DNA of 64,000 bases from Bdellovibrio sp. GTDB taxonomy: Bacteria; Bdellovibrionota; Bdellovibrionia; Bdellovibrionales; Bdellovibrionaceae. How positions within the stretch are numbered: the stretch's first letter is position 1; each line of letters begins with the position of its first letter. Positions 36,739 through 53,032 of this stretch are shown here, piece after piece. A model generated the notes under the pieces. That model saw only the letters and a list, made by a program, of their open reading frames with translations, had not been told where the DNA came from and did no database searches. The translations under genes and the position numbers were made by a program. The DNA lies in contig JBBKWD010000072.1 of assembly GCA_037968775.1 (NCBI GenBank), positions 11,339 through 75,338 of the forward strand. Direction: 5' to 3'.

Positions 36739-36755
36739 GAGTTTTAATGGCGGTA

Positions 36756-37214: not shown

Positions 37215-37223
37215 AATAATATC

Positions 37224-37772: not shown

Positions 37773-37795
37773 GACGAAATTTTTCAGGCCGCGAA

Positions 37796-39250
37796 TCAAT
37801 CGAGAAATATCTTGAGCTTTTCATATATGGAGGGCGACAGATGATTAACGAAAAACGTCTTTGCCGTCGTCCGCATTAATTTGTGTTTAAAATACATCGA
37901 ATGGCGGTAACGTGCTTTTTCTGTCAACGGCGTCAAATGATACAGAGGAGTCCTCTCAAGATAAAATCGCAAACCTTTTTGATGGGCTGTAAACCCAAAG
38001 TCCGTATCTTCAAAACCATAAGAAACATAGGTCTTGCGAAATTTACCCAAGTTTAAGAATGTCTCTCGCTTTAAACTCAAACTATAAGTACACGCGTACT
38101 TCCAATAGTCGGGAATACCCATCCAATCGTCGCTGGTGAAAAAGGGGCCCCAATAGGATTCTTCCTCGATATAGACGTCTTTTTTCCCGAGCGCTTGAAT
38201 TTCTGTGAACTTGCCGGAAAATGACGGCTTTATATGATAACGAACAAACTGTAAAAGATCTGTTTGCTGCAGCCTTTGCTGCACGATTTCTAAATAGTTA
38301 TCGGGAACGATCATGTCGGAGTCTAAGAAACTCAAGATCGATCCCTTAGAAAAAGATGCCCCATAGTTTCGGCAGAGACCCGCCCGAAAGCTTCCCAACA
38401 ACTCCCCTGCTTTCTGAGTTTTCGGCACATGGTGATAGCTAAAGTTAAAGTTACCAAGCTCAGGGGCCAAGAAGGACTTCAGCGTATTCGTCGCCGCTTG
38501 GGGTGAACCATCATCGACAACTAGGACCTCAAATCGATTGCGATTGCAGTTTTGCTTCAAAAGATGGCGCAAAGAGTTCACCAAAAAGTCAGTTCCTTCA
38601 TATGCCGGAATGATCACCGACACTTCGATCTGAGGCTGGGCACTTTGACTTGAAACCAATTCCTGCCCTCGCAAAAAGAGTTCGACTTCTTGAGGAATCC
38701 GACTGTCGTATTGATCCAGTCCCGGTAACGGGCGATATTTCATTTCCGGGAAACTCTTTGTGATCTTTTGGCCCAATTGGTAAATATGTTTGCCGCTCAT
38801 CTTGCTGCAAGGCTCAAAGTAAAGTTGTTCCCTGAGCCAAATCGGTAGATACGACAAATTTGCCGCCACCTCAAAAGGTTTTGAATACTTCAGCAATCCA
38901 TAAATTTGAGCGCGCAGCGGATACAAACTCTCCAGATGACCGGACAAAGGCTCTGCACAAGGCCTGAGCTCCAAAATAATCTCATCAGTTTCCTGCAAAA
39001 TATTTTCCAGGTCCGAACGACTGACGTCCTTCAACACCTCATGCGGAAGCTGCAAGCAAATGGCCATCTTTGCCTCTCGCAACCGCTGCCTTAAATCACT
39101 CCACAACTTTGGGTGGCGGGGCCATTGCCACGAAATAAGTATATGCGAACACTCGCAGAGCAAGGCTTTCTGAATTCGCCTCTCGCAAATCGCCGCCTCC
39201 TCATGGAACTCTAGTCGATAATAAGTTTTCATGACTCTAGAGTCGGCCAT
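37796..39250 (-). CDS. Long two-domain glycosyltransferase (unknown N-terminal ~200 aa + GT2 domain), paralog A
   Basis: Motifs VSVIIPAYEG, FEVLVVDDGSPQ, FLDSDMIVP and YGFEDTDFGF. The start overlaps the rSAM stop by 22 nt, or by ATGA if Met7 at 39232 is used. Confidence 0.8.
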   Translation of the reverse strand: MADSRVMKTYYRLEFHEEAAICERRIQKALLCECSHILISWQWPRHPKLWSDLRQRLREAKMAICLQLPHEVLKDVSRSDLENILQETDEIILELRPCAEPLSGHLESLYPLRAQIYGLLKYSKPFEVAANLSYLPIWLREQLYFEPCSKMSGKHIYQLGQKITKSFPEMKYRPLPGLDQYDSRIPQEVELFLRGQELVSSQSAQPQIEVSVIIPAYEGTDFLVNSLRHLLKQNCNRNRFEVLVVDDGSPQAATNTLKSFLAPELGNFNFSYHHVPKTQKAGELLGSFRAGLCRNYGASFSKGSILSFLDSDMIVPDNYLEIVQQRLQQTDLLQFVRYHIKPSFSGKFTEIQALGKKDVYIEEESYWGPFFTSDDWMGIPDYWKYACTYSLSLKRETFLNLGKFRKTYVSYGFEDTDFGFTAHQKGLRFYLERTPLYHLTPLTEKARYRHSMYFKHKLMRTTAKTFFVNHLSPSIYEKLKIFLD

Positions 39251-40362
39251 AAGGGTGCCGTTGATGAACTTTTTCTTTTTGGAATTTTACTATCAGCACT
39301 GCTCACGCAAGACGGTGTCGTGCACGGTCGCAGGTCCTCAAACAATTGAAAGCCTTCGTCTAAACTTCCCAGGGGTTTGTCATGACAACTATAACTTCGC
39401 TTAACGACGCCACCGGGTTCTCGAATAACCAAAGAGCGATAACCAGCACTGCACTGCCATCCGGAAAATTGATTAAAGGGAAATGCATTCAATCTTTCGG
39501 CCTGATCTAAATACCAAAGCTTGCCGTCCGAATCCCTTAGTTCCATTTGCATATTTGCATGGCGAACAGTTTCCAGACTGCGATCTTGAATTTGATATTT
39601 AGAACGAGGACGAGGCGAAGTCTTTTGCAAGGCTTGCAGCCGCAGACCGGTATAGTCCATTTGCGGCAATCCGTTCTTCAGGATCTCCATTTGGGCTGCT
39701 GTGTAACCGTCCACTACCATGGTCGCATCCAAGTTGGATTGGGGCTTCAAGGTCACATTGATTCCCGCATTGTGAAAGTCTAAAGCCAGTTCCCACAGCA
39801 TTTCAAAACGCTCTGGCACCATCACCATATTGATAGTGACTTGCACGTCATGCCCCTGCAAAAAGATAATTTTCTGTTTGAATTCTTCAGACTTCGCAAA
39901 TTCAGAGTGATAGCTCGCTGTGATGCTGACGCGATTGAGTTCTTTCGTGGCTTCGACGTATTTCTCATACCAAGCCATTTTTAAACTGAGATTTGTAGTC
40001 ATATGAACAGATTGATAATTACAGTTAGGTGTGTCGGCCCCGTAAGCCTGCAAAAAATCGAGGTAACCCGGATGCATACTGGGCTCACCTCCACTAAAAG
40101 AAAAGTGAAAAGAATTAAAGCCCCGCTCTCGGGCTTGGCGTTTGATCTCTGCAATATTCTGAATGACGACTTCTGTCGGACGGTGATCTTTTATTTTAGT
40201 GCTCGCATAGGGCCAGCAATAGCTGCAAGAGTAATTGCAAAAGCGACCGAGAATCCAGCTCACAGCAAATAAGTCGCGATACAAAAGACTGCGCTGCCCC
40301 AGGCTCTCGATTTTTTCAAATGGAATTTGAGTGAAATCATATTCAGATAGATGTGTACTCAC
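39229..40362 (-). CDS. Radical SAM enzyme with C-terminal Cys cluster (twitch/SPASM-like)
   Basis: The GTG start shares nt 40362 with the upstream stop. CxxxCxxC in GRFCNYSCSYCWP. C-terminal WQCSAG...SYSCHD...RPCTTPSC. Confidence 0.8.
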   Translation of the reverse strand: MSTHLSEYDFTQIPFEKIESLGQRSLLYRDLFAVSWILGRFCNYSCSYCWPYASTKIKDHRPTEVVIQNIAEIKRQARERGFNSFHFSFSGGEPSMHPGYLDFLQAYGADTPNCNYQSVHMTTNLSLKMAWYEKYVEATKELNRVSITASYHSEFAKSEEFKQKIIFLQGHDVQVTINMVMVPERFEMLWELALDFHNAGINVTLKPQSNLDATMVVDGYTAAQMEILKNGLPQMDYTGLRLQALQKTSPRPRSKYQIQDRSLETVRHANMQMELRDSDGKLWYLDQAERLNAFPFNQFSGWQCSAGYRSLVIREPGGVVKRSYSCHDKPLGSLDEGFQLFEDLRPCTTPSCVSSADSKIPKRKSSSTAPLWPTLES

Positions 40363-41090
40363 TACTTCACTCCAATTTGCATGAAACGCTTGTATCCGAA
40401 CAATTCTAGCTCTCCGCTAAAAAGAATCGTGGATAAAGGAGCTTGCTGTTCAAAGGCATGCAGATCTGCCACACAATTCACATGATCACGGCCCTCATAA
40501 AAATCATTATTCTGGAGAACAACAAATTGCCCGGAAGGAATGGCCTCAAACCAACCCTTAAAATTCGTCAAATGCTCACAGACGGTATTAATTATAATAT
40601 GGGGTTGATGGGGTGCAAAAGCAGCGGCGTGTAAATCCATAGTTTTCACATCCAGCATGCCGTTCCAAGAATAAGGCTCATTCAAACTATTTGCGATCTC
40701 GGCGCATTCTGGATCAATATCAAAGCTGCAACAGTCTTTGACTAAATGAGGCATCAACCAAAAACTCATTAAAGCTGTCATTCCCGTCCAGCCCCCACCA
40801 ACTTGCAGTGAATACTGTCCTTGCGGAAGGACGTCTTTTAAGACTTCAAAAAGCCAAATTTTAGATTCGATTTGTCCTTGAGAAAGGGACTCTTGCACAC
40901 TTTTCCAATGACGCGCGTCCAACTTTTTAACTTGTCGCGCATAGGTGCCGTACTCCCACAATCCTTCACTGAGCAAATGCTTTTGCCAGTGCCCTAGCGC
41001 CTGCGTGGAGCAAGATCCCTCGAGGAAGGATTGCATCGCCCTGGCAAAAGAGCGTATAGATTGTGAAGTTAGAGTTCTGTCCTGCATCAA
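40362..41090 (-). CDS. Class I SAM-dependent methyltransferase-like protein
   Basis: LQVGGGWTG resembles a glycine-rich motif I. SFDIDPEC provides the acidic end of strand 2. IIINTVCEHL resembles motif IV. Confidence 0.5.
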   Translation of the reverse strand: MMQDRTLTSQSIRSFARAMQSFLEGSCSTQALGHWQKHLLSEGLWEYGTYARQVKKLDARHWKSVQESLSQGQIESKIWLFEVLKDVLPQGQYSLQVGGGWTGMTALMSFWLMPHLVKDCCSFDIDPECAEIANSLNEPYSWNGMLDVKTMDLHAAAFAPHQPHIIINTVCEHLTNFKGWFEAIPSGQFVVLQNNDFYEGRDHVNCVADLHAFEQQAPLSTILFSGELELFGYKRFMQIGVK

Positions 41091-41145
41091 CTATTTATTA
41101 GCCATTCCAGGACCTGTAATGTCAAGATCTTGAAAGAGGTTTGGT

Positions 41146-42240
41146 TTGTATAATTATGAAGATATCAGAATGGTTCATCTCGAGGTGACGTCTCGCTGCA
41201 ACGCGAGCTGCCCTATGTGCGCACGCAATATTCACGGCGGCAAAACCAGCCCCTATCTTCCCTTAACAGACCTCCGCCTGGAGCAAATAAAACAAATCTT
41301 TCCTGTCGCATTTATCCGACAACTTAATAAAATCTATCTCTGCGGTAATTATGGGGACCCGGCTGCGGGGCCAGAGACTCTCGAAATTCTTTCTTACTTC
41401 CGAGAGGTCCACCCTCAAATCACTCTCGGAGTCCACACCAATGGCGGCGTTCGATCCTCTGAATGGTGGGGGCAATTAGCAAAAGTTGTTAGTTATTGCC
41501 GTTTCGGTATCGATGGCCTCGAGGACACCAATCACCTTTATCGCCGAAATGTAAACTGGGAGCGCCTGCAACAAAACATTAAGGCCTTTGTTGCTGCCGG
41601 TGGACGTGCCGAATGGGACTTCCTATTGTTTGAACACAATGAACACCAAATAGACAGAGCACGAGACCTTGCAAAAACCTGGGGCTTTCAAGACTTTCAG
41701 GTTAAGAACACGTCGCGGTTTTTTGACAAAAAAACAACCACGACATTAATGGACTATCAGGTGCGGGATGTTGATGGTCAGAACATTTATAAGTTACGTC
41801 CGACGCGCTTGTCTCATTATCAAAATAAAGCCCTTGAAAAGGGTTATCGTGAAGTTGTGGCGGAATACGGTTCAGTGATGGATTATTGGAACAAGACTGA
41901 AATTCAGTGCCGTGTTGCTGTTGAAAAAAGTATTTATATCTCAGCAGAGGGTTTGGTTTTCCCCTGCTGTTGGACCGCTGGGCAGCTTTACTCTGCGACG
42001 ACGCCAATGTCGGCCGCGAACAATGAAGTCTGGAAACAAATTGAGTCCTTGAGTGAAGGCAAAGAATCCCTTTCGGCTCTTCGTTACAGCATAGAGTCCA
42101 TCCTCCGTGGTGCTTACTTTCAAAAAACGCTACCAGAAAGCTGGAACGCGCCTTCCCTGAAAGAAGGTAAACTGCAAGTCTGTGCAAAAACCTGTGGACA
42201 GACTGTGAAACCTTTTGAAAGTCAGTTTATCAAAGTATGA
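41146..42240 (+). CDS. Radical SAM / SPASM-type enzyme
   Basis: TTG 41146 lies 6 nt after AAAGAGG. Motifs LEVTSRCNASCPMC (CxxxCxxC) and LCGNYGDP. C-terminal Cys motifs: IQCRV, FPCCW and CAKTCG. Confidence 0.8.
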   Translation: MYNYEDIRMVHLEVTSRCNASCPMCARNIHGGKTSPYLPLTDLRLEQIKQIFPVAFIRQLNKIYLCGNYGDPAAGPETLEILSYFREVHPQITLGVHTNGGVRSSEWWGQLAKVVSYCRFGIDGLEDTNHLYRRNVNWERLQQNIKAFVAAGGRAEWDFLLFEHNEHQIDRARDLAKTWGFQDFQVKNTSRFFDKKTTTTLMDYQVRDVDGQNIYKLRPTRLSHYQNKALEKGYREVVAEYGSVMDYWNKTEIQCRVAVEKSIYISAEGLVFPCCWTAGQLYSATTPMSAANNEVWKQIESLSEGKESLSALRYSIESILRGAYFQKTLPESWNAPSLKEGKLQVCAKTCGQTVKPFESQFIKV

Positions 42241-43628
42241 AGGGCGCCTATATTTCCCCGACAGTTTACAAATACCTTTGGGGCACAAGACTCCCTTGGC
42301 CCTTTGGTAAAACTCGCGTAGAAATTGATTCTCTCTACACAGAGTTTCAAAAGTCCCCTTATCGCCATTTTCTGTTTCCAGCTGACTGGCTCCAAAAGTT
42401 AAAAAACTCAGAAACCCTTCCACCGGAAGCCGTCCTCATTGTTACCGCAAAAAAATATTCAACCTCAAATGGCCACAAACACCCATTGATTGTTTTGGTA
42501 AAGTCGGCCGATGAGGCCCTGCGATTTTTTGACTCCGGCAGTCCCGCAACTGAAATTTTTCTACTTACCGACTCTGTTCCTCAAAAAAAAGATTTAGAGG
42601 CTCTTATGAAAATTCCCAATTTAAAATGGCATTTTTCATATAAAATGAAGGACTCCGACCTGCAACGCAGTCTTAAGATCTTAAAGTCTCAAAATTTTTC
42701 CGCGAAATCTTCCGATTTTATAGAGCTGACTTCGCAAAAGAATATCGACCTTTGGTTTGCCCCTGAAGTTGAAGTTCTCTTGCAAAAAATTCCACCAGAA
42801 AGTCCCGACTTTTCGATCGTCATCCCTTTTCAGGACAACTATGCAGAGCTCGAGCAAACCCTGACATTTCTTTTCCAAAGCCTGACCTCAGACCTTCATT
42901 TTGAGATTTTACTTGCCGACGACAGCTTTTCCAAAGCTCACCAGGCCGCTCTGCTCGAAATCCTGAAGTCTCATTCCGTACCAGCAACTTATTTAAAACT
43001 TCACCGCGAAGCTGGACGAAAAAAAGGTGACTTGTCTTTTCGGGCCGGTGTCGCCCGCAACTGTGCTGTCCGTTTTGCCCACGGCAAAGAACTCGTCTTT
43101 TTGGACTCTGATATTCTGGTCGGAGCCGGTTTGTGGAATAACATTCAGCTAGATCGCAAGAGTCACCAAGGCCCCTTGATGCCCCGTCGCCACTTTCTTC
43201 GTTCAGATCTTTCGCTGCGAAATAAAGACTATTCTAAAATTTCTTTAGGCCAAGACACCCTTTTAAGCTGGGGCGGACACTGGGAAGATTTCTATCGCCA
43301 TTCAACAGATTCCGATAGCTGGAAATGGACATCGACCTACTGCCTGGCTCTTCCCAAAGACCTTTTTCTTGAGCTCGGAGGCTTTCGCAGATCTTTTTAT
43401 TGTTACGGATTTGAGGACACCGATTTGGGCTTTAGATTGGCGCATAGTTCACGTCCTTTAAAAGTACTCAATCAGGATGTTTTTCACCTGCCCACCCCCA
43501 CAGAACGCAGTGAATATGCCGCCGACTTTAACCAACGAAAAAAGCTTTTGAAAAAATCTTTTGCAGTTTTTCAACGGAGCGTTTTGGAACCGAATTTATT
43601 GCCGCAATTTAAGCACATTATTTCCTAG
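42237..43628 (+). CDS. Long two-domain glycosyltransferase (unknown N-terminal ~200 aa + GT2 domain), paralog B
   Basis: ATGA overlap with the upstream rSAM gene. Motifs FSIVIPFQDN, FEILLADDS, FLDSDILV and YGFEDTDLGF. The C-terminal domain aligns with that of the 37796-39250 protein. Confidence 0.8.
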   Translation: MKGAYISPTVYKYLWGTRLPWPFGKTRVEIDSLYTEFQKSPYRHFLFPADWLQKLKNSETLPPEAVLIVTAKKYSTSNGHKHPLIVLVKSADEALRFFDSGSPATEIFLLTDSVPQKKDLEALMKIPNLKWHFSYKMKDSDLQRSLKILKSQNFSAKSSDFIELTSQKNIDLWFAPEVEVLLQKIPPESPDFSIVIPFQDNYAELEQTLTFLFQSLTSDLHFEILLADDSFSKAHQAALLEILKSHSVPATYLKLHREAGRKKGDLSFRAGVARNCAVRFAHGKELVFLDSDILVGAGLWNNIQLDRKSHQGPLMPRRHFLRSDLSLRNKDYSKISLGQDTLLSWGGHWEDFYRHSTDSDSWKWTSTYCLALPKDLFLELGGFRRSFYCYGFEDTDLGFRLAHSSRPLKVLNQDVFHLPTPTERSEYAADFNQRKKLLKKSFAVFQRSVLEPNLLPQFKHIIS

Positions 43629-43661
43629 AACAATCGCCACTCTGGCATTAATCTTTTCATC

Positions 43662-44372
43662 ATGACGAAGCCACTTTTTATAGTCGACGACTGGGGCATG
43701 AGCCCTGCGATCAACGAAGCCGCGCTCTTTCTGGCCCAGCAAGGCTGGCTGTATGGAATTTCTGTCATTGCGAGATCACGATTTTATGCTCACCAACTTC
43801 AAGAAGTTCTCGCCTGTGACGTCAAAGTGGGCTGCCATCTCAACTTAACCTTTGATCTGAATCCAGCACTTCCCGAAAGCTCCACTTGGCTGGGAACAAC
43901 TCAACAAATTGCGAAAGCTCTGGGCACGGGCCTGTTTTTCAATCAAAAAATTTCGATAGAAATAAATCAACAAGTGGATTGGGTTCGAAAGCACATAGGA
44001 CGATTGGACTATTTGGATGGGCATCATCATATTCACTTGTATCCGGGGGTTTTGAAGGCCAGCCAGGCCGTGGCCGCCTATAACCAGATCCCACTGCGAG
44101 TGGTGACGGACTCTTCGTTTAAAAGTAACTACGGATTGGCTTTGTGGGCCAAGTGGGCCCTTAAAAAATCAGACTACTTCGAGTGTCTATATCTCAATCA
44201 AAATGATATCGAAACAGATCGGAACTTACGCGCAAAGGCGCTGAATACTCAAGAACTACCTGTGGCCGTTCATCCAGCCACTCGGAATGACTTTGCTGAA
44301 AATAAAGTGGCCGATCTTTTAAGTGCGGATCGCGTGATTCAATTTGAAAAAATTAAATCTGCCCTTTTGTAG
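43662..44372 (+). CDS. YdjC/ChbG/HpnK-family carbohydrate deacetylase
   Basis: N-terminal FIVDDWGMSPAINEA (metal-binding Asp) and DGHHHIH motif. Confidence 0.75.
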   Translation: MTKPLFIVDDWGMSPAINEAALFLAQQGWLYGISVIARSRFYAHQLQEVLACDVKVGCHLNLTFDLNPALPESSTWLGTTQQIAKALGTGLFFNQKISIEINQQVDWVRKHIGRLDYLDGHHHIHLYPGVLKASQAVAAYNQIPLRVVTDSSFKSNYGLALWAKWALKKSDYFECLYLNQNDIETDRNLRAKALNTQELPVAVHPATRNDFAENKVADLLSADRVIQFEKIKSALL

Positions 44373-44380
44373 ATCTTCGT

Positions 44381-45418
44381 TTAAAAATAGCTTTCTAACT
44401 TACCGGTGCGTTTTAAATCTAAAGTCACACAGTGGGCTCCTCCACCTAAAGTTCGTTGATGGCGCATTTTTACAGGAATCACATTGATCTGATTTTTCTC
44501 AAGTAAATTTATCAAAGGCACTTGAGTTGCTTCCACGATGGCCAAATCCGGTCGAACCATAAAAAGATTCATGCCAATCCACGTCGAGGCATTCTCATAG
44601 GGGGCCTGAAATCCAATGTCTATTGGTTCTGGACACCACAGCACATCCCATTTGTCTAAAGGCGCCGGTATAGAGTCCTTCTGAATGCGAGCGGGATTGA
44701 GCAGAGCCAAACCAGGGCGCAAGAGCGAAATCGTGCTATCAATGTGCATATAAGAATAAAGACCTTCCAAGGTGTGCACTTTAAATTCTTGCCCCAGTAT
44801 CGATTGCAACCAACGGGCACCTTTTAGATTTCCGCTATTAGAAACTAAATAGAACAAATCCCGCCCACATCGCAAAACATTGGCAGCATCAAAGCAAATT
44901 TCTTCATTCGTGAGAGTTGGGATCTTGGGTTCGGCCTTATCCAAATAGTTATTATCTGACAGCAAGGGCCGAGGGGCACTGAGCCACTTGGCCCCCGCCT
45001 CAAAAGCTTGTGCGAACAGCGCTCGATAAGCCAGGGTTTCTGAATACCGAGCCCGAATGGGCATAGGAGTTTCGATGATCATATCGCCAATCACCAGGGC
45101 CGAATCCCGGGGACAGAAAAAGTATTGCGAGTCCGATTTCCAAAAAGGATTTCCATGTTGCGAACTAGAATCAAATACTTGAGGCCGATGCACTTGAATC
45201 CCCAATTTTTCAAACACCTGACATAGCTCCGTCAAATCTTCCTCGGCCTCTTCAATCACTTGCTGGGGGTAGGCTCCTGAGGGAATGAATCGAGCGTCCT
45301 CGAGTTGTGCATAAGCTATGGCTTTCAAACTCGTGTCCACCTGGGGCACGCGTGCCCCCAAAGCCGTCCCCACAAGGACAGACTCTAGAGGGTCCCATTC
45401 ATTCCAGCTATTAATCAT
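44381..45418 (-). CDS. Amidinotransferase (glycine / inosamine-phosphate amidinotransferase family)
   Basis: Motifs SWNEWDPLESVLVG, CFDAANV (Asp), YMHIDSTI (His) and LGGGAHCVTLDLKR (Cys). These align along the full length with the remembered AGAT/StrB1 pattern. Confidence 0.85.
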   Translation of the reverse strand: MINSWNEWDPLESVLVGTALGARVPQVDTSLKAIAYAQLEDARFIPSGAYPQQVIEEAEEDLTELCQVFEKLGIQVHRPQVFDSSSQHGNPFWKSDSQYFFCPRDSALVIGDMIIETPMPIRARYSETLAYRALFAQAFEAGAKWLSAPRPLLSDNNYLDKAEPKIPTLTNEEICFDAANVLRCGRDLFYLVSNSGNLKGARWLQSILGQEFKVHTLEGLYSYMHIDSTISLLRPGLALLNPARIQKDSIPAPLDKWDVLWCPEPIDIGFQAPYENASTWIGMNLFMVRPDLAIVEATQVPLINLLEKNQINVIPVKMRHQRTLGGGAHCVTLDLKRTGKLESYF

Positions 45419-46875
45419 AGTGGTTTCTCATTTCTCTGTTCATTTTCTTTTTGAATAAAGGCGTGCATATCCGGAAGAAGCCCTTCAAGCAAACGGGATC
45501 GATTGCGCGCCAGACGTGGTTGCATTTTTGTCAGCAACGCTTGCAGGTCTGCTAAGGGCTGACTTAACAAACTATCTAAGAGATCCAAAACAGCCTGCAT
45601 ACGCTCTCCATGATTCAAAATTTCATCGTAGCTTTCATCCCAAAGGTCCGCGAAGGTTTCAAATCCCATCTCTCTGAGGTATCGAAGCATTTGGGGCCCC
45701 CCGACCACCACAAACGGGCGCATATAGAGAATCGGCAAAAATGTTTTTTCACTGATTTCGCCACACAAAGTCCCAAATCTCGTCTCGTTCACCACCGCCA
45801 AAAACGCTTCTGAATACCAGGCATAAAATTCAAATCCCGTTCGTAGGTTGGACTCGCCGTCAGCATCGGGCAACGAAAAACCTTGAGGGTCTAAAACTTT
45901 GGAGTTTTTTGAATCCAACACCAGGGGCAGCTTCTTCTGCATTCCTTGAATCCCGTCTTGAATTTGATGCCACCACGAAAGATTCTCGGGATTAAATGGC
46001 AACTCATTGCGAAAGTGCACCGGATCATGACGATGAAAGAAGCTGATCGATCCCGATTGACTATAACTCGATTTTTGATTCGCTGGCTGATTTCGCGTCT
46101 GAATTTGGCCTTCCAAAAAACCAACAACAAGCTCTCGTACACCTTCATAGCGAAAATTTGGGCAAATAAATTTTTTGCTGACGAGAGTGTTAAATGGAAA
46201 GCCATTTTTCGTAAACTCGGCATCGCGATCAATCTCTCTTTCAACTAAACTCCGGCAAAGATCTGCAAGAAAAAAATCCCACGTTTGCACCTGAAGAGAG
46301 TGGTACATATTTTTAGATCGCAGATAAGTTCCCAGCCCATAGTCACACACATAGACCTTGGCGCGAATCGTTCCGCCGTGATTAAAAATGAAATCCTCAA
46401 CCCAGCCCAGTTCAGGAAAAAAGGGCTTTGAATCCGTGTGAATAAAGGCGGGTGATCTTTGGTCCTCGTTAGTTCTTTGAAAAAGGGGTTCATAGAAATA
46501 AAACGCCACTTCTTTTCCCTGCAACTGCTTTAACTCTGACCCCGTGAATTTAAGTCGACTGAGTAAATTAGTATCCCCATTGATCAAAAACCACGGACGC
46601 TTTTCTACCGTCAAAAAAATATCCAAATACTTCTTTAGCCAAACTTTTTTATAGTCCAAGGGAGGTCGGCGCAACAGGATTTCATCATGACAGGTCACCA
46701 TGGTATAGCTGTCAGTCGACTCATGATTCCCATTTAATTTGTAGGTCACCGAAAAATAGTGGGCATTATAAGAAAGTAACGAAGGATCATGCAACATGGG
46801 AACCGAGGAAGAACGAAAATTTCTTCCCATTAAAACATCTCTCCAACCTCGTTTATCCTGGATTTTAAGAGCCAT
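45415..46875 (-). CDS. Unknown 486-aa protein inside the sugar-tailoring operon
   Basis: No confident family. The C-terminal block VVNETRFG..GEISEKTFLPILYMRPFVVVGGP..L..L...GFETF loosely recalls the nucleotide-sugar-binding half of some GT-B transferases. Confidence 0.5.
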   Translation of the reverse strand: MALKIQDKRGWRDVLMGRNFRSSSVPMLHDPSLLSYNAHYFSVTYKLNGNHESTDSYTMVTCHDEILLRRPPLDYKKVWLKKYLDIFLTVEKRPWFLINGDTNLLSRLKFTGSELKQLQGKEVAFYFYEPLFQRTNEDQRSPAFIHTDSKPFFPELGWVEDFIFNHGGTIRAKVYVCDYGLGTYLRSKNMYHSLQVQTWDFFLADLCRSLVEREIDRDAEFTKNGFPFNTLVSKKFICPNFRYEGVRELVVGFLEGQIQTRNQPANQKSSYSQSGSISFFHRHDPVHFRNELPFNPENLSWWHQIQDGIQGMQKKLPLVLDSKNSKVLDPQGFSLPDADGESNLRTGFEFYAWYSEAFLAVVNETRFGTLCGEISEKTFLPILYMRPFVVVGGPQMLRYLREMGFETFADLWDESYDEILNHGERMQAVLDLLDSLLSQPLADLQALLTKMQPRLARNRSRLLEGLLPDMHAFIQKENEQRNEKPL

Positions 46876-47524
46876 GCTGATGAAAAACTTCTAGCTTGCT
46901 CAGATCCGGATAGTCCGCCGAGTGGCCCGTTTGCAGAGGGTGATTCGTAATTTCGTCCATTAGCAAGATGCCGCGTGCGGCATCTTCTGGTGTCATATAG
47001 TAATGATAGCCTAAAGTCTGAATTGGATCCTGCTTCCAGGTGCGCCCCCGAGTCCTGCCATCGTAACTTGCTCGGCGCAACCATTCGGCCGCTTTCGCAT
47101 CAGAAGTCAGAATCATCCCGCCGCGACCGATCGGAAGTCGTTTCTTTTGCTGAAAGCTCAGACAAAAAAATGTGCCCTTGATATAGCTGTTTTCAGTGTA
47201 ACTCATGCTCGCGTCTACGACTGGATAAGGACTTAAGCTATAGTGATCTTTCCACTCTCTGTCGACCCATTGAATCTGGCACTGCAACTTCAAAACTGTC
47301 ATCGGTACACTGACATAGGTTCTTTTCGGGACCTCAATTGAGCCTTTGGCGTTGAGGTACCGCAATGACAACTCTATTGCGTGGCTACAGCAATCCACGG
47401 CCACTGCGTACGGTGCGCCGATATAAGCCGCTACCCGTTCTTCAAATAGAGTGACCACATCAAAGGGATCACTAAATTCAATACCTTTTTGTTTGAGAAG
47501 TCCCAGCTCATTTCGCTCGAGCAT
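46865..47524 (-). CDS. Short DegT/DnrJ/EryC1/StrS-like PLP-dependent sugar aminotransferase-like protein
   Basis: YIGAPYAVAVDCCSHAIELSLRYL matches the N-terminal family pattern. LSFQQKKRLPIGRGGMILT matches the SF..K...GEGG active-lysine block. At 219 aa it is much shorter than typical members. Confidence 0.5.
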   Translation of the reverse strand: MLERNELGLLKQKGIEFSDPFDVVTLFEERVAAYIGAPYAVAVDCCSHAIELSLRYLNAKGSIEVPKRTYVSVPMTVLKLQCQIQWVDREWKDHYSLSPYPVVDASMSYTENSYIKGTFFCLSFQQKKRLPIGRGGMILTSDAKAAEWLRRASYDGRTRGRTWKQDPIQTLGYHYYMTPEDAARGILLMDEITNHPLQTGHSADYPDLSKLEVFHQHGS

Positions 47525-48341
47525 ACATTGTCACCATTTCTCTGAGGCCGTCTTCAACTTGGCTAAAATCGCTGCCAAAAAAATTTTGAATTTGAATCTT
47601 ATAGTTCCGGCTGTCCCCTATATTGCTTAAACTGAAACTCAGGGGCTTTTCTTCAAAAACCTTGGATTTTAAAATATCGGTTTTAGTCAAATTTTCGGTC
47701 ACGATGTTTTGCGGCCCCACCCAAGAATCCAGTAGGCAGGCCTCAAGTGTTCGAGCAAAATCCTGACAATGAATATAGGGTCTCCAAGCATCGGGCGCAT
47801 AGATCTCGAGATGCTCCGAATGAGCAGCAGAACGCGCCAATTGATTAATAAATAAATCATTTCGCATTTTTTCGGACCAACCATAAGCTGTTCCAAAGCG
47901 ACAAATACGGTGAGGCAAAGAAAGTTTTTTTAAAATCTCTTCCACCGCCAATTTGGATTCAGCATAGTGGCTGGTGGGATTCACGATTGACGACTCCGTG
48001 ATGAGTTCCTCGGAAAATCCATACACACTGCAGCTCGAAGAAAAAATTACGCGCTTAAGATTTGGTAAATCAGAAACTTTATTTAAAAAATTCTCATGCA
48101 TACGAATATTATCTTTTAGATTCTCTGCGTGAATATCTTGAAAACGCCGATCCGCCAAGTGCACGACCGTCGTGACATCTTGAACGCCTTCCGACAGCGG
48201 ATCAAAAGACTCCAGGTCATTCAAGACTTGATCTCTATCTAATCCTAAAAATGAAATTCTTTTCCCAAGATGACTCCCAATATATCCGGAGGAGCCGGTC
48301 ACCAATGTCATCCCCGCTTCCCGATTATCGAGTGTTGCCAT
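47508..48341 (-). CDS. NAD-dependent sugar epimerase/dehydratase (extended SDR)
   Basis: VTGSSGYIGSHLG is a Rossmann motif, and YAESK is a YxxxK catalytic motif. An alternative start at ATG 48311 is possible. Confidence 0.75.
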   Translation of the reverse strand: MATLDNREAGMTLVTGSSGYIGSHLGKRISFLGLDRDQVLNDLESFDPLSEGVQDVTTVVHLADRRFQDIHAENLKDNIRMHENFLNKVSDLPNLKRVIFSSSCSVYGFSEELITESSIVNPTSHYAESKLAVEEILKKLSLPHRICRFGTAYGWSEKMRNDLFINQLARSAAHSEHLEIYAPDAWRPYIHCQDFARTLEACLLDSWVGPQNIVTENLTKTDILKSKVFEEKPLSFSLSNIGDSRNYKIQIQNFFGSDFSQVEDGLREMVTMYARAK

Positions 48342-49494
48342 ATTGTTTCACCTGACATCCTGGAATTTTTAGAACGGTTCGCCACGGATCAACCACGACA
48401 CTGTCATGAACAAATCCCACTTTGGTTTCCCAGTTTTCATAAGGGTGCGCCAAAAGGTACACTGCAGGGTTGTGAGGGATTTCATTGTAGCCCGCCAAGG
48501 GATCAAAGAGCAAAACTTTGACTTTATATTGCTGCAGATAGTGCGCCACCAGCAAACTGAAACTGCCATCAACTAAGGCACACTGAGGTTTAAAGCCCAC
48601 TCCTAAAATACAGACTTCTTTGCCATAGCCGGCTAAGTGTCGAGCCATGTTCTGCGCTTGTACCTCACGACTGTGAATGATTTCACCGAACAGATCATAC
48701 CCCAACTCGAGTCTTTTCGCGAGGTCTCGCAAGGCAATATTGTCGCGAGGATGGCAAGGCCCACCATCCCCCATGCCGGCCTTCATATAGGTGGGGCTTA
48801 AAATTCTTTGGTTCGCACGAGTCAATGCCTCCGTAACCACATCTACATTCATATGACCGATACGTTCGGCTACATCTTGGATCATATTTACGAAGCTCAG
48901 CTTAAAACTAATAAAAGTATTATAGAATATTTTTATTGATTCGGCTTCCTCCCAGGTACCTAAGGCGATGGGCGGCCGATCAATGAAAGTCTGATAGAGT
49001 TCCTCTAGGCGTTCAATTCCCGCATTGGAACCATCTCGAGTTCCGATTGGCAATAGCTCCGGATTCAAAAAATCCGCCTTCACTGTTCCCATCGCGATAA
49101 AGTAGGGATTGTAAATCAACTGACCTTGTGGCAACAAAGGCGCCAGCTCTATTCGAGTAGTCCCCGGCAATACTGTTGAAATAAGAACCACTGTCGCAGC
49201 GGGGTTGAGATTGTGAATATCTGAAAGAACTTTTTTAACTGCTTCATAACTGAAGTTCTTTAATGGCAATTGCGATACAGGCAAGCTGCCGTCGTAAGCA
49301 CGATCGTGGGGAGTCGGGACTGCCACCAAGATCAGGTCCTGATTCAAAACGACCTCTGAAAAGGTTTTGGCTATTTTCAAAGTTTCAGATTGAATAGCCG
49401 GGTCAAGATCAAAACCTGTGACTTCATGTTTCGTCGCCATAACCTCGGCACAAGGCAAACCCAACTTCCCTAAACCAATCATTCCCACTTTCAT
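48325..49494 (-). CDS. Nucleotide-sugar 6-dehydrogenase (UDP-glucose/GDP-mannose dehydrogenase family)
   Basis: MKVGMIGLGKLGLP forms the NAD fold. GDGGPCHPRDN matches the catalytic-Cys motif GGxCxxKD. Confidence 0.75.
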   Translation of the reverse strand: MKVGMIGLGKLGLPCAEVMATKHEVTGFDLDPAIQSETLKIAKTFSEVVLNQDLILVAVPTPHDRAYDGSLPVSQLPLKNFSYEAVKKVLSDIHNLNPAATVVLISTVLPGTTRIELAPLLPQGQLIYNPYFIAMGTVKADFLNPELLPIGTRDGSNAGIERLEELYQTFIDRPPIALGTWEEAESIKIFYNTFISFKLSFVNMIQDVAERIGHMNVDVVTEALTRANQRILSPTYMKAGMGDGGPCHPRDNIALRDLAKRLELGYDLFGEIIHSREVQAQNMARHLAGYGKEVCILGVGFKPQCALVDGSFSLLVAHYLQQYKVKVLLFDPLAGYNEIPHNPAVYLLAHPYENWETKVGFVHDSVVVDPWRTVLKIPGCQVKQYGNTR

Positions 49495-50864
49495 AACTCA
49501 ACTCCCGAATTGAACAACATATTCGAGTACTCCGGTGACACTACATCTTGAAACTTTTCATTTCGTATGCGATCTAAATTTTCTGTGTATTTCAAAAATT
49601 CATCAAAGTAGCTAGATAAATCCCGAGCCATCAAGTGATGAGCCAAACCTCTGTAGAGCTCTTGCCACTTGGCGATCAAGTGATCCGCCTCGGTCTTTTC
49701 ATATGCCATAAGACGGAGTCTGTCCTCAAAACGTTTTTGCAACAGTGGTATGGCTCGCAAAAGCTTTGCCTTTGATTCTTCTGGAAGGCACTGCACATTC
49801 AAAAACTCTGGTTTATGTAACACATGATGAGTCACCAAGGGTTTTTTTGAAGAGGCGTTGATCTTATTAAATCTCTTTTGCAACTTCCAAAGAATTAAAT
49901 CCGACAGATCATAAAAGTTAATTATCGAAACTGTACAGGCCAACCAAACCACGATATTCGGCGATGAAGCATCTAGACGTTCTAAGTTTTTTTCAATCAC
50001 TGAAAATCGACTCGGATTGCGAATAAAGTCGTTCAATTTCCCATGAGCATCGACACTGACACCAATACGAACTTGCTTAAAGTTTTTCCAAAGATCTAGA
50101 GCCTTCTCTGGCAAGATGGTCAGATTGGTGTTGTATTCCAGAACCACGCGAGCAGAAAGCCCCCGGGCAATGAGGTGATTCAAAAACTCATAGTGCTTTT
50201 CGATCAACAGTGGTTCGCCACCGACGACATAGATATGCTCAAGAGCCGTAGAGTTTCTTTCTAGGTCGATCCAGAACTCTTGGCTCTCATGCCAATTCAA
50301 AGTAGCGGGGGCCTCGTAGGCCTTTCCATTCAAGACTTTAAAATCTTCGTACCAAGCCGACGAATCCGTCGGTCCACACATTCGGCACTTTAGGTTGCAC
50401 TTATTTCCAAATCGAAGGTCCAGATCCATCACGGGATGATCACCGGTCACAATAGAGCCGTCTTTTGATGTCTTCGACAGAGTCTGCTCCCGATTTGGCA
50501 AGAGAAGTTCATTTGCATAATTTCTTTTCGACCTCAAACCACTGGATTCTTCCCGCTGACAACGTCCACAGGCTTCGGGCCACTCGCCTTGCGCCATTTG
50601 CGAGCGAACTTGCTTTAAGGTCGCGGAATTTCTGGCAGCTTCAAAACGATGAGTTCCAGCGTTGAGAGCCTGACCCTGCTCGTCTTTGAGCACTCCCCTC
50701 TGATCCGAGACATTGGCGTGACAGCAAATACGGAACTGCCCATCATTTCTAATGGCGACAGACGACCAAGGCAGGGGACAGAAAGTGTCTTGGATATTCA
50801 TTATAAAATTGCTCGCTGTCTCATATCCAGAATGACCCGGCGATGAGTGAAGTGTCTTTGCCAC
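49491..50864 (-). CDS. Radical SAM enzyme with N-terminal Cys-rich (twitch-like) domain, paralog 3
   Basis: N-terminal FCPLPWSSVAIRNDGQFRICC...CGRC, then FGNKCNLKCRMCGP. ATGA overlap with the dehydrogenase gene. Confidence 0.8.
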   Translation of the reverse strand: MAKTLHSSPGHSGYETASNFIMNIQDTFCPLPWSSVAIRNDGQFRICCHANVSDQRGVLKDEQGQALNAGTHRFEAARNSATLKQVRSQMAQGEWPEACGRCQREESSGLRSKRNYANELLLPNREQTLSKTSKDGSIVTGDHPVMDLDLRFGNKCNLKCRMCGPTDSSAWYEDFKVLNGKAYEAPATLNWHESQEFWIDLERNSTALEHIYVVGGEPLLIEKHYEFLNHLIARGLSARVVLEYNTNLTILPEKALDLWKNFKQVRIGVSVDAHGKLNDFIRNPSRFSVIEKNLERLDASSPNIVVWLACTVSIINFYDLSDLILWKLQKRFNKINASSKKPLVTHHVLHKPEFLNVQCLPEESKAKLLRAIPLLQKRFEDRLRLMAYEKTEADHLIAKWQELYRGLAHHLMARDLSSYFDEFLKYTENLDRIRNEKFQDVVSPEYSNMLFNSGVEL

Positions 50865-51147
50865 ATACTCTCTACGCTAATGGAAGACTGCGTAAAAATG
50901 GACCAATTTCTTTTGTTATGCCCTGTGGCTTGCACCTTTTTTTGAATGAAATCGACTTCGAAAAAATCTTTCTAAAGAAATCTGTGTTTTCTATTAAAAA
51001 TTTGATAATTTCTTATCTAGGCCCCTTGAACTCGAATTTCTGAGCGGATCGGTTTATATGATCGGTGAGAAAAAAACCTAAGCTTGACCATTTGGACGCA
51101 AATTCCAAAAGCCCACCGGGCCTAATAACTCCAGAGCAAAAGGATCC

Positions 51148-52071
51148 ATGAAAAAATCGATTTACTCCAAGCTTCATATAGAATTCGCGGATGCCCCCGC
51201 CTCCTTACAACCGTCCTTGCGACTGTCATTTCAGATTGCCGATCATTCGGCTGCGCAAAAGTGGGCTCATTGCATAGCTCAATCCCAAGCCCACAGCCAG
51301 TTACTTGAAGACAAACGATGGTATAATTTCCCAGGTAAAAAGATGAGTTCCCTCCCCAAGATCGCGCTGGAGCTGGAAGGAGTTATTCATCGCCTCAATG
51401 AGCTTCATCCCGGCTTGATCACCGAAAAACCAGATCCCGAGAATCTTCAAGATAGCGTGAACCGGCTGCATACCCACTTTGCCGACAGTCACCTTGTGAA
51501 AAATCGTATCACTGAAATTTCACACGACGCCTGGTTTGAGTTCAATAACCTTTTGCATGCCTTTGAAGCCGTCGAAAGATCTCTTCAAGTTGAGCCTCAA
51601 GCGCAGATTCCCAATGCCAGTATTGTGTTCACCTGGAAAGACAATTTCAACACACCCCTTGCCGAATTGGACTATCAAGAGTTCACAATCGCTAAAAAAT
51701 TTGGAACTTGTTATATCAATTACTGCCAGGTCGGGCGGCATCTTTTTGAAATGTTCCAAGCACAGGATCACGAGCTTGCCGACGAACACATTCTGCCCTT
51801 AAGAAATGCCAGCGCTGATACTTATCTCTGGTTTGGCCAAAGCACTGGGCCTCAAGGCTTTAAAAGAAAAATGCAAGACATCGAAACTTGGTTTTTTAAA
51901 AATGAAGAGCATTTTAAACGTCTTGGCTTTAAATGGGGGGATCCGAAACTAGCGATTGGGTGGATTCCTGTGGCCAGCCTTGAAAAAGATCTTCGAAATC
52001 TCTCAGACCAAAAAGATATGATTCAAAAAATTAGCCAAATGGATCGCATCGCAAATTGCATCGTTGAATAG
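51148..52071 (+). CDS. Hypothetical protein
   Basis: 307-aa ORF with ATG preceded by AAAGGA. No family recognised. It is divergent from the island, with a 283-nt spacer. Confidence 0.5.
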   Translation: MKKSIYSKLHIEFADAPASLQPSLRLSFQIADHSAAQKWAHCIAQSQAHSQLLEDKRWYNFPGKKMSSLPKIALELEGVIHRLNELHPGLITEKPDPENLQDSVNRLHTHFADSHLVKNRITEISHDAWFEFNNLLHAFEAVERSLQVEPQAQIPNASIVFTWKDNFNTPLAELDYQEFTIAKKFGTCYINYCQVGRHLFEMFQAQDHELADEHILPLRNASADTYLWFGQSTGPQGFKRKMQDIETWFFKNEEHFKRLGFKWGDPKLAIGWIPVASLEKDLRNLSDQKDMIQKISQMDRIANCIVE

Positions 52072-52102: not shown

Positions 52103-53032
52103 TTACCCCATTGTGACTCGATTTCGTCCGTTTTGTTTGGCATGATAGAGTGCTTTATCGGCGCGATCATAGATTTGACTCCACTCGGATTCTTGCGCTG
52201 CTTTCGTCGCAACACCGACCGATATCGTCACAGGAATTTTTTTACTTTCAAATAAGAACTCATGACTCTCGATCGTATGCCGAATACGTTCTCCGATTTC
52301 GCCAGCGATCTTGGCATTCGTACCTGAAAGAATCAGAACAAACTCCTCTCCGCCATAGCGGGCAAAGAAGTCATTCGCACGAATCAATTTGGAAATGACG
52401 ATCTGACATAGCTCTTTCAGAACATAATCGCCACCGGGGTGACCGATGGAGTCGTTAATTTTTTTAAAATGATCGATGTCGAAAGTGACGATGCTTAGTG
52501 GTTCATTTAAGATTTCGGAGCGCTTAATCGCCTCCGGGCCTTTTTCAATCAGAGCCCCTTTAGAGTGGGCTCCTGTCAGCGCATCCTTTTGCGCCTTCTC
52601 ATACATGGTCTGATTTGACATGGCCTCCAAGCTTCCCTTCTCAAGGAACTTGAAAATGACATTTCCGGTTTTAATTTGATCATTGTTTTTCAATAAACAT
52701 GAGGAAAGCGGCGGCAAGATCTGACCGTTCACGATTGTCTTGTTCGTCGAACCCAAATCAATGATAGAGACTTCCGGCCCGTTCACAGCAAACTTTGCAT
52801 GAGAACGGCTGAGACTTTTATCATCGATATAAACTTGGCTTTCCACCGAGCGACCAATCACGATGTCACTAGCCGTTACGGGATATTGTTTGCCAACATA
52901 GCCGGGGGGTCCCATTAAAACGACAACTGCCGGAGGCACTTCATCCGCTTCTTTGAGGCGGCCGCGAAAGGTATCGCTGGCAACTATACTGGTTTTTTCT
53001 AAACTATCGGAGTTATCATCGTTATGAGCCAT
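52103..53032 (-). CDS. dgcB: FHA-domain diguanylate cyclase (DgcB-like)
   Basis: N-terminal FHA (IGRSVESQVYIDDKSLSRSHAKF...TNKTIVNG). C-terminal GGDEF domain with RYGGEEF. Confidence 0.8.
   Translation of the reverse strand: MAHNDDNSDSLEKTSIVASDTFRGRLKEADEVPPAVVVLMGPPGYVGKQYPVTASDIVIGRSVESQVYIDDKSLSRSHAKFAVNGPEVSIIDLGSTNKTIVNGQILPPLSSCLLKNNDQIKTGNVIFKFLEKGSLEAMSNQTMYEKAQKDALTGAHSKGALIEKGPEAIKRSEILNEPLSIVTFDIDHFKKINDSIGHPGGDYVLKELCQIVISKLIRANDFFARYGGEEFVLILSGTNAKIAGEIGERIRHTIESHEFLFESKKIPVTISVGVATKAAQESEWSQIYDRADKALYHAKQNGRNRVTMG

Follow-up and report, generated by a model that had tools for sequence, protein, structure and literature searches.

In a 64,000-nucleotide stretch of the Bdellovibrio sp. 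contig JBBKWD010000072.1, hereinafter the window, six overlapping genes on the minus strand end in one that encodes an amidinotransferase of the family of StrB1, the amidinotransferase of streptomycin biosynthesis. We propose, with moderate confidence, that this operon constitutes a cytoplasmic cassette for the tailoring of a nucleotide sugar, whose last modification would be an N-amidination leading to a guanidino sugar, that chemistry being deduced from the enzyme families represented. The operon, which reads from 50864 to 44381, comprises the following elements:

50865–51147, no strand, intergenic region of 283 bp, presumed promoter region from the layout of the open reading frames only, before the divergent gene at 51148–52071
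49491–50864, minus strand, N-twitch radical S-adenosylmethionine (rSAM) protein of 457 residues from a GTG start, matching NF033640; first gene of the operon here
48325–49494, minus strand, enzyme of 389 residues resembling nucleoside-diphosphate (NDP)-sugar 6-dehydrogenases, with UDPG_MGDP_dh domains
47508–48341, minus strand, extended short-chain dehydrogenase/reductase (SDR) of 277 residues, Pfam Epimerase
46865–47524, minus strand, "mini" DegT-type sugar aminotransferase (sDegT) of 219 residues, dependent on pyridoxal phosphate (PLP), DegT_DnrJ_EryC1
45415–46875, minus strand, GT-B-like protein of 486 residues, putative glycosyltransferase, assigned from its predicted structure and with no family match
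44381–45418, minus strand, StrB1-family L-arginine amidinotransferase of 345 residues, assigned by phmmer against the PDB, residue mapping, and a phylogenetic tree; last gene

The initial annotation of the window had described six minus-strand open reading frames with every junction overlapping by 4–17 nucleotides. Both the coordinates and the overlaps—in the 5′-to-3′ direction 4, 17, 17, 11, and 4 nucleotides—were confirmed, and the family names given there to the operon genes were upheld by Pfam and NCBIfam. The 11-nucleotide overlap follows from the start assigned to the 486-residue protein, whose N-terminus, MG-LK[LI]QDKRT, is the same in the homologues; the source gene caller had begun that protein at Met16 (471 residues). 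The start of the rSAM protein, for its part, is ambiguous, being either the GTG at 50864 or an ATG located 63 nucleotides (21 codons) further in, with the NF033640 match beginning at residue 26. None of the six proteins contains transmembrane or hydrophobic segments, the GC content is even across the operon region, and a scan for consensus promoters and terminators between 43.5 and 51.3 kb gave sites no more numerous than in shuffled sequence.

By its sequence, the product of the last gene is a true StrB1-type amidinotransferase, with the full catalytic and arginine-binding set. In a phmmer search of the PDB sequences, StrB1 (1BWD) scored 384 bits (E 5.6e-114, residues 2–344), SxtG 213, the arginine:glycine amidinotransferase AGAT 209, and HsvA 197 bits, whereas the score of the dimethylarginine dimethylaminohydrolase DDAH was 14 bits; and in an alignment of 86 sequences the protein was 51.8% identical to StrB1 and about 36% to AGAT and SxtG. 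The initial annotation had reported that the Asp, His, and Cys contexts of amidinotransferases were kept, and the three motifs quoted there are indeed present—CFDAANV at residue 175, YMHIDSTI at 223, and GGGAHCVTLD at 325—so placed that the catalytic Asp177, His225, and Cys330 align to Asp254, His303, and Cys407 of AGAT (numbering of PMC3684758) and to Asp179, His227, and Cys332 of StrB1, with the same residue in 85–86 of the 86 sequences. The arginine-binding Asp105, Asp227, Arg244, and Ser278, which correspond to AGAT Asp170, Asp305, Arg322, and Ser355, are all conserved as well, and over the triad and arginine-binding columns taken together the identical residue occurs in 83 to 86 of the 86. 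The likeness to StrB1 thus covers the full length (52% identity, 345 versus 348 residues), including identical catalytic and arginine-binding residues; in addition, both proteins are without the long insertions of AGAT, and both genes lie near a DegT-type aminotransferase and dehydrogenases.

That such a protein could be a guanidino-group hydrolase, of the arginine-deiminase (ADI), DDAH, or agmatine-deiminase type, misread as a transferase we regard as extremely improbable. The sole Pfam match is, to be sure, to PF02274 "ADI", below threshold at 19.9 bits, and some JGI records label homologues as "N-dimethylarginine dimethylaminohydrolase"; but the 384 bits to StrB1 and the 197–213 bits to four other solved amidinotransferases versus the 14 to DDAH, together with a best NCBIfam arginine-deiminase score of 15.7 bits against a cutoff of 414, rule out the hydrolase on sequence scores. 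The initial annotation had held that a phylogenetic placement with ADI- or DDAH-type hydrolases would speak against a transferase; by its scores, its residues, and the tree, the protein falls with the StrB1-type transferases.

Relatives were collected in a scan of one genome per species, which yielded 281. The best 80 of them span Streptomyces (among them producers of streptomycin and bluensomycin), Pseudomonas, Burkholderia, cyanobacteria, myxobacteria, Acidobacteriota, and Bdellovibrionota; the closest homologues belong to Pseudobdellovibrionaceae and Bdellovibrio, and the nearest one in that scan is 61% identical, the identical protein having been found only in a 2-kb Logan contig. In a neighbor-joining tree with bootstrap, the StrB1-like group stands apart from AGAT and SxtG (100%), and the streptomycin-type StrB1 sequences form a clade of their own (100%). 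The window protein groups with those of five Bdellovibrionota loci (L002, L003, L006, L007, and L009; 74%), and the sister of that group is a clade from Acidobacteriota, Vicinamibacterales, and Burkholderiales (100%), the joint clade being recovered at 99%. A difference also exists in the flap over the acceptor site, which reads LYSYMH in the window protein and LYASTH in streptomycin-type StrB1; the pattern [IL]Y[SA][YF]MH is specific to the Bdellovibrionota and sister clades, and the two residues before the catalytic His are [YF]-M in 20 of the 20 members of the joint clade, but S-T in streptomycin-type StrB1. Those two positions correspond to AGAT Asn300 and Met302, which residues are specificity determinants in AGAT and CyrA (PMC3684758), so that the substitution argues for a different acceptor.

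The protein consequently does not qualify as an orthologue of StrB1, from which it differs in clade, in flap, and in genomic context: it is accompanied by a GT-B-like protein and by enzymes of the nucleotide-sugar type, its locus is without cyclitol, kinase, or resistance genes, and its host is a Bdellovibrio-like Gram-negative predator and not an actinomycete. StrB1-like amidinotransferases of 47–50% identity are encoded, too, in Pseudomonas (L057, L067, L073, L078, L080, L083, L084), Burkholderia (L068), cyanobacteria (L028, L041, L048, L075), and Vibrio (L049), with no DegT or 486-residue-family gene within 10 kb; the pathways of those non-actinomycete genes appear to be uncharacterized.

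Around the amidinotransferase, the conserved unit consists of five genes—those for the dehydrogenase, the SDR, the sDegT, the 486-residue GT-B-like protein, and the amidinotransferase—with the rSAM gene lying outside this core. Together with the amidinotransferase, the cassette families are found again in some ten independent Bdellovibrionota-type contigs, at 58–75% identity, in arrangements such as the following:

L002, L087, and L088: dehydrogenase, SDR, sDegT, 486-residue-family protein (about 467 residues), and amidinotransferase, in the same order, among unrelated housekeeping genes (hflX and cvfB; TetR and proteases; menaquinone genes)
L091: the five families reshuffled as dehydrogenase, 486-residue-family protein, amidinotransferase, SDR, and sDegT, beside dnaX and recR
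L090 and L009: only sDegT, 486-residue-family protein, and amidinotransferase
L003, which is Bdellovibrio sp. HCB2-146: rSAM, dehydrogenase, SDR, and sDegT, with the amidinotransferase and the 486-residue homologue a few kb off, at about 1.85–1.87 Mb of NZ_JBLEQP010000001.1, and two more rSAM genes
L086: syntenic with window positions 37796–46875, and having a 486-residue homologue and an amidinotransferase

In 8 of 10 related loci, the homologue of the 486-residue protein is encoded next to the amidinotransferase, and in L003 and L006 it is found in the same locus on the opposite strand. A word-index search of 5.8 billion sequences gave only 16 relatives of that protein, most of them on a contig with a match to the amidinotransferase or the sDegT. 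The maintenance of the cassette through a divergence to 58–75% identity and through a shuffling of gene order is strong evidence for one pathway, and chance does not account for the arrangement. The six-gene sugar operon of the initial annotation accordingly holds as a set of co-inherited sugar-tailoring genes, but the conserved unit has five members and the rSAM is optional.

All six families were also found together in a contig of 30% GC with all its genes on one strand (L159; JACCED010092936.1, 1–16636), which encodes an N-twitch-like rSAM, an sDegT, the amidinotransferase (9456–10475), an SDR fusion, a member of the 486-residue family, and a dehydrogenase, along with a GT7 (glycosyltransferase family 7) plus laminin-G protein. 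The contig may be viral, and the amidinotransferase is broken by a single in-frame stop codon, which interruption may be due to a sequencing error or to recoding of the stop codon, or may mark a pseudogene; an uninterrupted close relative runs off the end of another contig (L168).

The sister clade (338 residues; L004, L010–L020, L025, L029, and L089, from Acidobacteriota, Vicinamibacterales, and Burkholderiales) has a cassette of its own, containing an HAD-family protein, the amidinotransferase, a 308-residue unknown, a GT2, two NodZ-like proteins, a 365-residue unknown, a full-length DegT, and an SDR like GDP-fucose synthase. Of 14 loci, 11 encode a full-length DegT and an SDR no more than 8 kb from the amidinotransferase, the two genes coming directly after it in L018 and L019; most of the loci contain the GT2, the two NodZ-like genes, and the two unknowns as well. 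In L089, the amidinotransferase gene overlaps the end of wzt within an O-antigen cluster of the ABC-transporter type, which includes a WecA-like GT4, GT2s, epimerases, and wzm. When both clades are compared, the constant partners are an aminotransferase, an SDR, and glycosyltransferases. We advance, though only tentatively, a broader proposal: that the StrB1-like N-amidination of nucleotide-activated amino sugars is an unrecognized and fairly widespread form of glycan tailoring, represented by the cassette in Bdellovibrionota, by O-antigen-type clusters in Acidobacteriota, Vicinamibacterales, and Burkholderiales, and by low-GC, possibly viral contigs.

The sequence of a dehydrogenase, a DegT-type aminotransferase, and an amidinotransferase is that of streptomycin biosynthesis (StrI, StsC, and StrB1), and by analogy the logic of the cassette seems to mirror streptidine formation, with enzymes of the nucleotide-sugar type resembling Ugd/ArnA/ArnB or WbpA/WbpB/WbpE. 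We had to consider, then, whether the product might be a streptidine-like guanidino-cyclitol or aminoglycoside-type metabolite, the dehydrogenases and the aminotransferase acting—as do StrI and StsC—on a cyclitol derived from inositol. The 52% identity with StrB1 over the full length would agree with such a product, as would the DegT gene that Streptomyces loci likewise have near StrB1 and the action of twitch rSAM enzymes such as BtrN on aminocyclitols. We nevertheless consider this outcome very unlikely. The Pfam-listed flanks of L002–L005 and L086–L091 contain no inositol-phosphate synthase, no gene like those for dehydroquinate or 2-deoxy-scyllo-inosose synthase, no inositol dehydrogenase, and no kinase, the only phosphatase-type family being the HAD hydrolase adjoining the sister-clade amidinotransferase in L004 and L005; nor do those families occur among the annotated genes of the window between 26 and 57 kb, 64 kb of this genome being available. 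Moreover, a phosphate is needed on the substrate of StrB1, and no kinase is encoded in the cassette; the dehydrogenase is of the NDP-sugar 6-dehydrogenase family, with its thioester Cys, and not a GFO-type inositol dehydrogenase; the sDegT relatives have NDP-hexose 4,6-dehydratase genes close by; the clade of the window protein is set apart from that of Streptomyces (99% and 100% bootstrap), with a different flap motif; and the rSAM lies outside the conserved core. The initial annotation had left the choice between a guanidinylated amino sugar and an aminocyclitol; the comparative data favor the former, whereas an aminocyclitol or aminoglycoside is disfavored by flanks that are devoid of cyclitol genes and by partners of the nucleotide-sugar type.

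The acceptor, for its part, cannot be read from the sequence, and the amidinotransferase could act on a non-sugar amine—an amino acid or polyamine, or else a lysine or ethanolamine group that a glycan already bears—while the sugar genes supply only the scaffold, in which event a guanidino sugar as such would not be formed. The characterized relatives AGAT, CyrA, AmtA, and HsvA do use glycine, lysine, ornithine, or polyamines (for AGAT, CyrA, and AmtA, cf. PMC4887976, PMC3684758). These enzymes belong with the window protein to one fold family and use the same ping-pong Cys chemistry (AGAT, CyrA, SxtG, and AmtA; 197–213 bits), but at about 36% identity they carry the 300-flap and insertions for small amino-acid acceptors and remain outside the StrB1-like group (100%), in which, and not in the AGAT or SxtG branches, the window protein is placed. 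Since, in addition, the amidinotransferase gene is translationally coupled to, and persistently inherited together with, that of an aminotransferase that would form a sugar amine, in two sister clades whose partners are otherwise different, a non-sugar acceptor seems to us rather improbable.

With respect to the amidinotransferase's partners, the dehydrogenase appears, by its domains and motifs, to be a divergent member of the NDP-sugar 6-dehydrogenase family: the N-terminal and central UDPG_MGDP_dh domains of Pfam score above cutoff, the best PDB matches are UDP-glucose 6-dehydrogenase (80 bits) and GDP-mannose 6-dehydrogenase (74 bits), and the sequence contains GxGxxG at 7–12, Lys188-x3-Asn192, and the catalytic thioester Cys247 in GGPCHPRD, which corresponds to the family pattern GGxCxxKD. 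The SDR (Pfam Epimerase, 72 bits) has as its best solved relative MoeE5, a UDP-glucuronic acid 4-epimerase (56 bits), and exhibits Gly16-x2-Gly19-x2-Gly22, Ser103, Tyr126-x3-Lys130, and SSSCSVYG. Before the VYG, GalE reads SSSATVYG, whereas the 4,6-dehydratases have T-D-E and the ArnA/UXS decarboxylases T-S-E; the window SDR, being GalE-like at this point, has neither the dehydratase nor the decarboxylase triplet, and an identity as an ArnA-type decarboxylase is ruled out by that motif. The motif and the relation to MoeE5 together fit an enzyme that oxidizes C4 of a uronate.

The sDegT was assigned to PF01041 with 65 bits, in two separated stretches. Relative to the canonical enzymes, with their two-domain architecture of about 360–390 residues, the C-terminal domain is missing altogether, along with some 60 internal residues, so that only the large domain is left. 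Asp104 and Lys127-Lys128, which answer to the Asp binding the pyridine nitrogen and to the Schiff-base Lys of the PLP-binding domain, are nonetheless invariant in 26 sequences, and the AlphaFold2 model (pLDDT 92) superimposed in Foldseek onto the PLP domain (E about 1e-11, TMq 0.65–0.71) of GDP-perosamine synthase, ArnB, WbpE, PglE, and BtrR, with 15 of the top 16 matches being sugar aminotransferases. The family has thousands of members of 215–260 residues. In a survey of 80 metagenome loci (L092–L171), 66 had a homologue of NDP-hexose 4,6-dehydratase (representative, PF16363 at 247 bits) within 5 kb of the family member, typically just downstream, and hexapeptide acetyltransferases, methyltransferases, GT4, GT8, GT10, GT11, and GT29 were encoded around these loci. 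By this context, the sDegT is a nucleotide-sugar aminotransferase and a general module recruited by the cassette; a specific tie to the amidinotransferase is ruled out, the latter being present in only 3 of the 80. The "short DegT/StrS-like aminotransferase" of the initial annotation is hence of DegT type, although representing a large family of mini sugar aminotransferases and not a remnant. The mini-DegT genes, abundant in freshwater and marine metagenomes, are often preceded by one for a 147-residue protein without a Pfam hit and by a hexapeptide acetyltransferase, which loci look like a compact pathway to a 3- or 4-acetamido-dideoxyhexose.

The 486-residue protein, listed simply as unknown in the initial annotation, has no match in Pfam, in NCBIfam, or among PDB sequences and profiles; its sequence contains an invariant Arg and Glu, SEK at residue 375, and WDESYD at 412. 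In the AlphaFold2 model (pLDDT 85, pTM 0.87), it is GT-B-like, and the protein is probably a glycosyltransferase: the top 23 Foldseek matches in the PDB, albeit weak, are all GT-B-fold proteins, and the PDB neighbors in general are almost exclusively GT-B enzymes, such as glycogen synthase, OtsA (probability 0.97), BshA, VldE, WecB, TagF, and EarP. About 20 uncharacterized proteins from uncultured phages (Caudovirales) match the model at probability 1.0, one of them fused to a UDPG/GDP-Man dehydrogenase; BFVD A0A6J5TB28 is counted in the family. A profile search extended the family to 12,097 representatives at 50% identity, with fusions to a dehydrogenase (P0346) and to FkbM methyltransferases; a Pfam scan of 20 members gave only fused foreign domains, the protein thus belonging to a very large family of probable sugar-transfer enzymes for which there is no Pfam model.

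From these assignments we constructed the following pathway. The dehydrogenase would oxidize an NDP-hexose from housekeeping metabolism at C6, by way of Cys247, to give the uronic acid, and the SDR would then oxidize a ring carbon, most likely C4, to give a keto sugar; that product would be a β-keto acid, whose loss of CO2 to a pentose, as in the Arn pathway, would be possible, though not indicated by the motif. The sDegT would transaminate the keto sugar by means of Lys128 and PLP to an NDP-amino sugar. The amidinotransferase would load the amidino group of L-arginine on Cys330 as S-amidino-Cys, with the release of ornithine, and pass it to the sugar amine, which transfer would produce an NDP-guanidino-deoxy sugar, be it a 4-guanidino-4-deoxy-hexuronate or the equivalent pentose. 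The GT-B-like protein would finally transfer the guanidino sugar to an acceptor and, in this genome, the N-twitch rSAM and the neighboring GT2, rSAM, and YdjC genes would serve to modify the sugar further and to incorporate it into a larger glycan. In scyllo-inosamine-4-phosphate, the substrate of StrB1, the amine is 1,4 to the phosphate; the 1,4 amine–phosphate geometry of an NDP-4-amino-4-deoxy pyranose would match that arrangement, so that the recruitment of a StrB1-type enzyme is chemically plausible.

Several observations weigh against this pathway. The C-terminal UDP-binding domain of the dehydrogenase scored 23 bits versus a cutoff of 30, and TIGR03026 169 versus 189.8. A SDR active site of the GalE type normally retains the keto intermediate, and the release of the keto sugar is accordingly an assumption. 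The sDegT is missing a whole domain and its family has no characterized member. The Foldseek matches of the 486-residue protein, almost all GT-B as they are, are weak (best E 6.7e-4, TM 0.2–0.35); a membership in GT10 or GT23, suspected because of the E..SEK and WDESYD motifs and the NodZ genes near the sister-clade amidinotransferases, found no support, hhalign to GT10 and to a NodZ-like sequence giving a probability below 1%. The step of the amidinotransferase, furthermore, might come only after glycosyl transfer, or its substrate might be a non-sugar amine. Finally, guanidino sugars are, as far as we found, unreported in bacterial glycans, so that the proposal is either novel or wrong.

Where the guanidino sugar would be delivered is a separate question, upon which the neighborhood of the cassette has a bearing. 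In this genome the amidinotransferase gene is followed by these genes:

43662–44372, plus strand, YdjC-like, converging on the amidinotransferase gene with an 8-nucleotide gap
42237–43628, plus strand, GT2 (Pfam/NCBIfam)
41146–42240, plus strand, rSAM (Pfam/NCBIfam)
40362–41090, minus strand, 242-residue unknown (Pfam/NCBIfam)
39229–40362, minus strand, rSAM (Pfam/NCBIfam)
37796–39250, minus strand, GT2 (Pfam/NCBIfam)

This block (37796–44372) is syntenic with L086 and absent from the stand-alone cassettes. The cassette is joined here to a 20-kb cluster that has five rSAM genes, of which three are N-twitch paralogues, at least seven GT2 genes, a GNAT, and the YdjC-like gene, as well as a GT2 resembling polyprenyl-phosphate-hexose transferases (31461–32084) and a weakly PMT/ArnT-like membrane protein (26612–28297), so that a larger, heavily tailored glycan is likely in this genome. 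The stretch from 26612 to 43628 is unusually rich in rSAM genes for a glycan cluster, those at 39229–40362 and 41146–42240 being interleaved with the GT2 genes.

In the stand-alone cassettes, in contrast, the product might be a small molecule or the decoration of an existing polymer. In five of them (L002, L087, L088, L090, and L091) the surroundings are housekeeping genes, and neither a flippase, a polymerase, an ABC exporter, nor any further glycosyltransferase lies nearby; all the cassette proteins are soluble; and the Foldseek matches of the GT-B-like protein include the small-molecule enzymes OtsA (0.97), BshA, and VldE. These data could speak for a soluble product, in which instance the GT-B-like protein would act in the manner of BshA, OtsA, and VldE and join the guanidino sugar to a small acceptor, to form a cytoplasmic or secreted cationic glycoside—for example, an osmolyte, a cofactor-like compound, or a predation toxin. 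Such a role is conceivable but, in our estimation, unlikely, both for the small-acceptor coupling and for the soluble glycoside: the window and L086 cassettes are embedded in a GT2-rich cluster, the sister clade is represented in a wzm/wzt cluster, and a single dedicated transferase could equally well decorate a preexisting surface polymer or protein. The cationic surface decoration put forward in the initial annotation is therefore to be retained as only one possible destination, since the cassette is often outside any glycan locus.

Two known routes to amino sugars permit a comparison with the proposed pathway. The synthesis of UDP-4-amino-4-deoxy-L-arabinose for lipid A by Ugd, ArnA, and ArnB likewise proceeds from a 6-dehydrogenase to an SDR acting on the uronate and then to a DegT enzyme, resulting in a cationic sugar, and the structures matched by the mini-DegT include ArnB. 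The cassette SDR, however, is without T-S-E; there is no formyltransferase, deformylase, ArnC, or ArnT inside the cassette, which adds instead the amidinotransferase and a soluble GT-B-like protein; and the aminotransferase is single-domain. In the route of WbpA, WbpB, and WbpE to UDP-2-acetamido-3-amino-2,3-dideoxy-glucuronic acid of the Pseudomonas aeruginosa O-antigen, a 6-dehydrogenase, an oxidoreductase, and a DegT enzyme again form an amino-uronic acid, which is then N-modified, with WbpE also being a structural match of the mini-DegT; but WbpB is of the GFO type and not an SDR, and the N-modifications known there are acetyl and acetimidoyl. The acetimidoyl group is added to sugars by an unrelated amidotransferase resembling asparagine synthase and not by a Cys-dependent amidinotransferase.

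The rSAM, for its part, was linked in the initial annotation to BtrN, a twitch enzyme that acts on aminocyclitols. Like BtrN of the butirosin pathway, the window protein is a radical SAM enzyme whose gene neighbors that of a DegT-type aminotransferase and which has an auxiliary-cluster (twitch) domain (NF033640, 378 bits versus a cutoff of 170; Pfam SPASM over residues 29–103), with Cys156-x3-Cys160-x2-Cys163; unlike BtrN, its twitch-like Cys cluster is N-terminal (Cys29, 47, 48, 99, and 102), and no relative was found among the PDB sequences. The window and HCB2-146 are the only cases in which the gene heads the cassette; most cassettes, those of L002, L087, L090, and L091 among them, are without it; this rSAM is thus an accessory to the cassette. 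The "BtrN-like logic" attributed earlier to the operon does not therefore extend to the core, and a BtrN-like role would, by analogy, be optional. Two N-twitch paralogues lie elsewhere in the window (28363–29712, 327 bits; 32149–33525, 439 bits).

Within the searchable literature, from which most subscription journals are excluded, we found no amidinotransferase linked to a glycan pathway and no natural guanidino sugar in glycans, so that the earlier statement that these enzymes are not known from surface-glycan loci met with no contrary paper. Among the N-substituents known on the amino sugars of bacteria are acetyl, formyl, acetimidoyl, acyl, and aminoacyl groups. What the cassette presents, then, is a known enzyme chemistry in an undescribed pathway context, along with two large uncharacterized partner families. 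If the cassette worked as its parts suggest, the result would be a new sugar chemistry, with a product that was strongly basic or, were the uronate retained, zwitterionic; guanidino sugars would be cationic at any physiological pH. The biological range of a small enzyme family, known until now in connection with creatine, toxins, and streptomycin, would be extended, and a function would be gained for two large unannotated families, those of the mini-DegT and the GT-B-like protein (about 12,000 representatives). Compact enzymes would also become available for guanidino sugars resembling the pharmacophores of aminoglycosides and of the zanamivir type, and a decoration of the predator's cell surface or adhesins could affect contact with the prey or resistance to cationic peptides. 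The cassette consists of five small soluble genes and has a cultured carrier, Bdellovibrio sp. HCB2-146, so that these propositions can be tested directly.

Two further genes in the window deserve mention. Just upstream of the glycan cluster, an 851-residue protein (23639–26194, plus strand) was identified as a Bdellovibrio "mosaic adhesive trimer" chimeric fiber (NF053851, 217 bits versus a cutoff of 60) with a C-terminal Peptidase_S74 chaperone domain, which finding marks the organism as Bdellovibrio-like and raises the question of whether the fiber is glycosylated. On the promoter side of the operon, one gene beyond, an FHA-GGDEF diguanylate cyclase is encoded at 52103–53032 on the minus strand (GGDEF, 128 bits; FHA, 59 bits).

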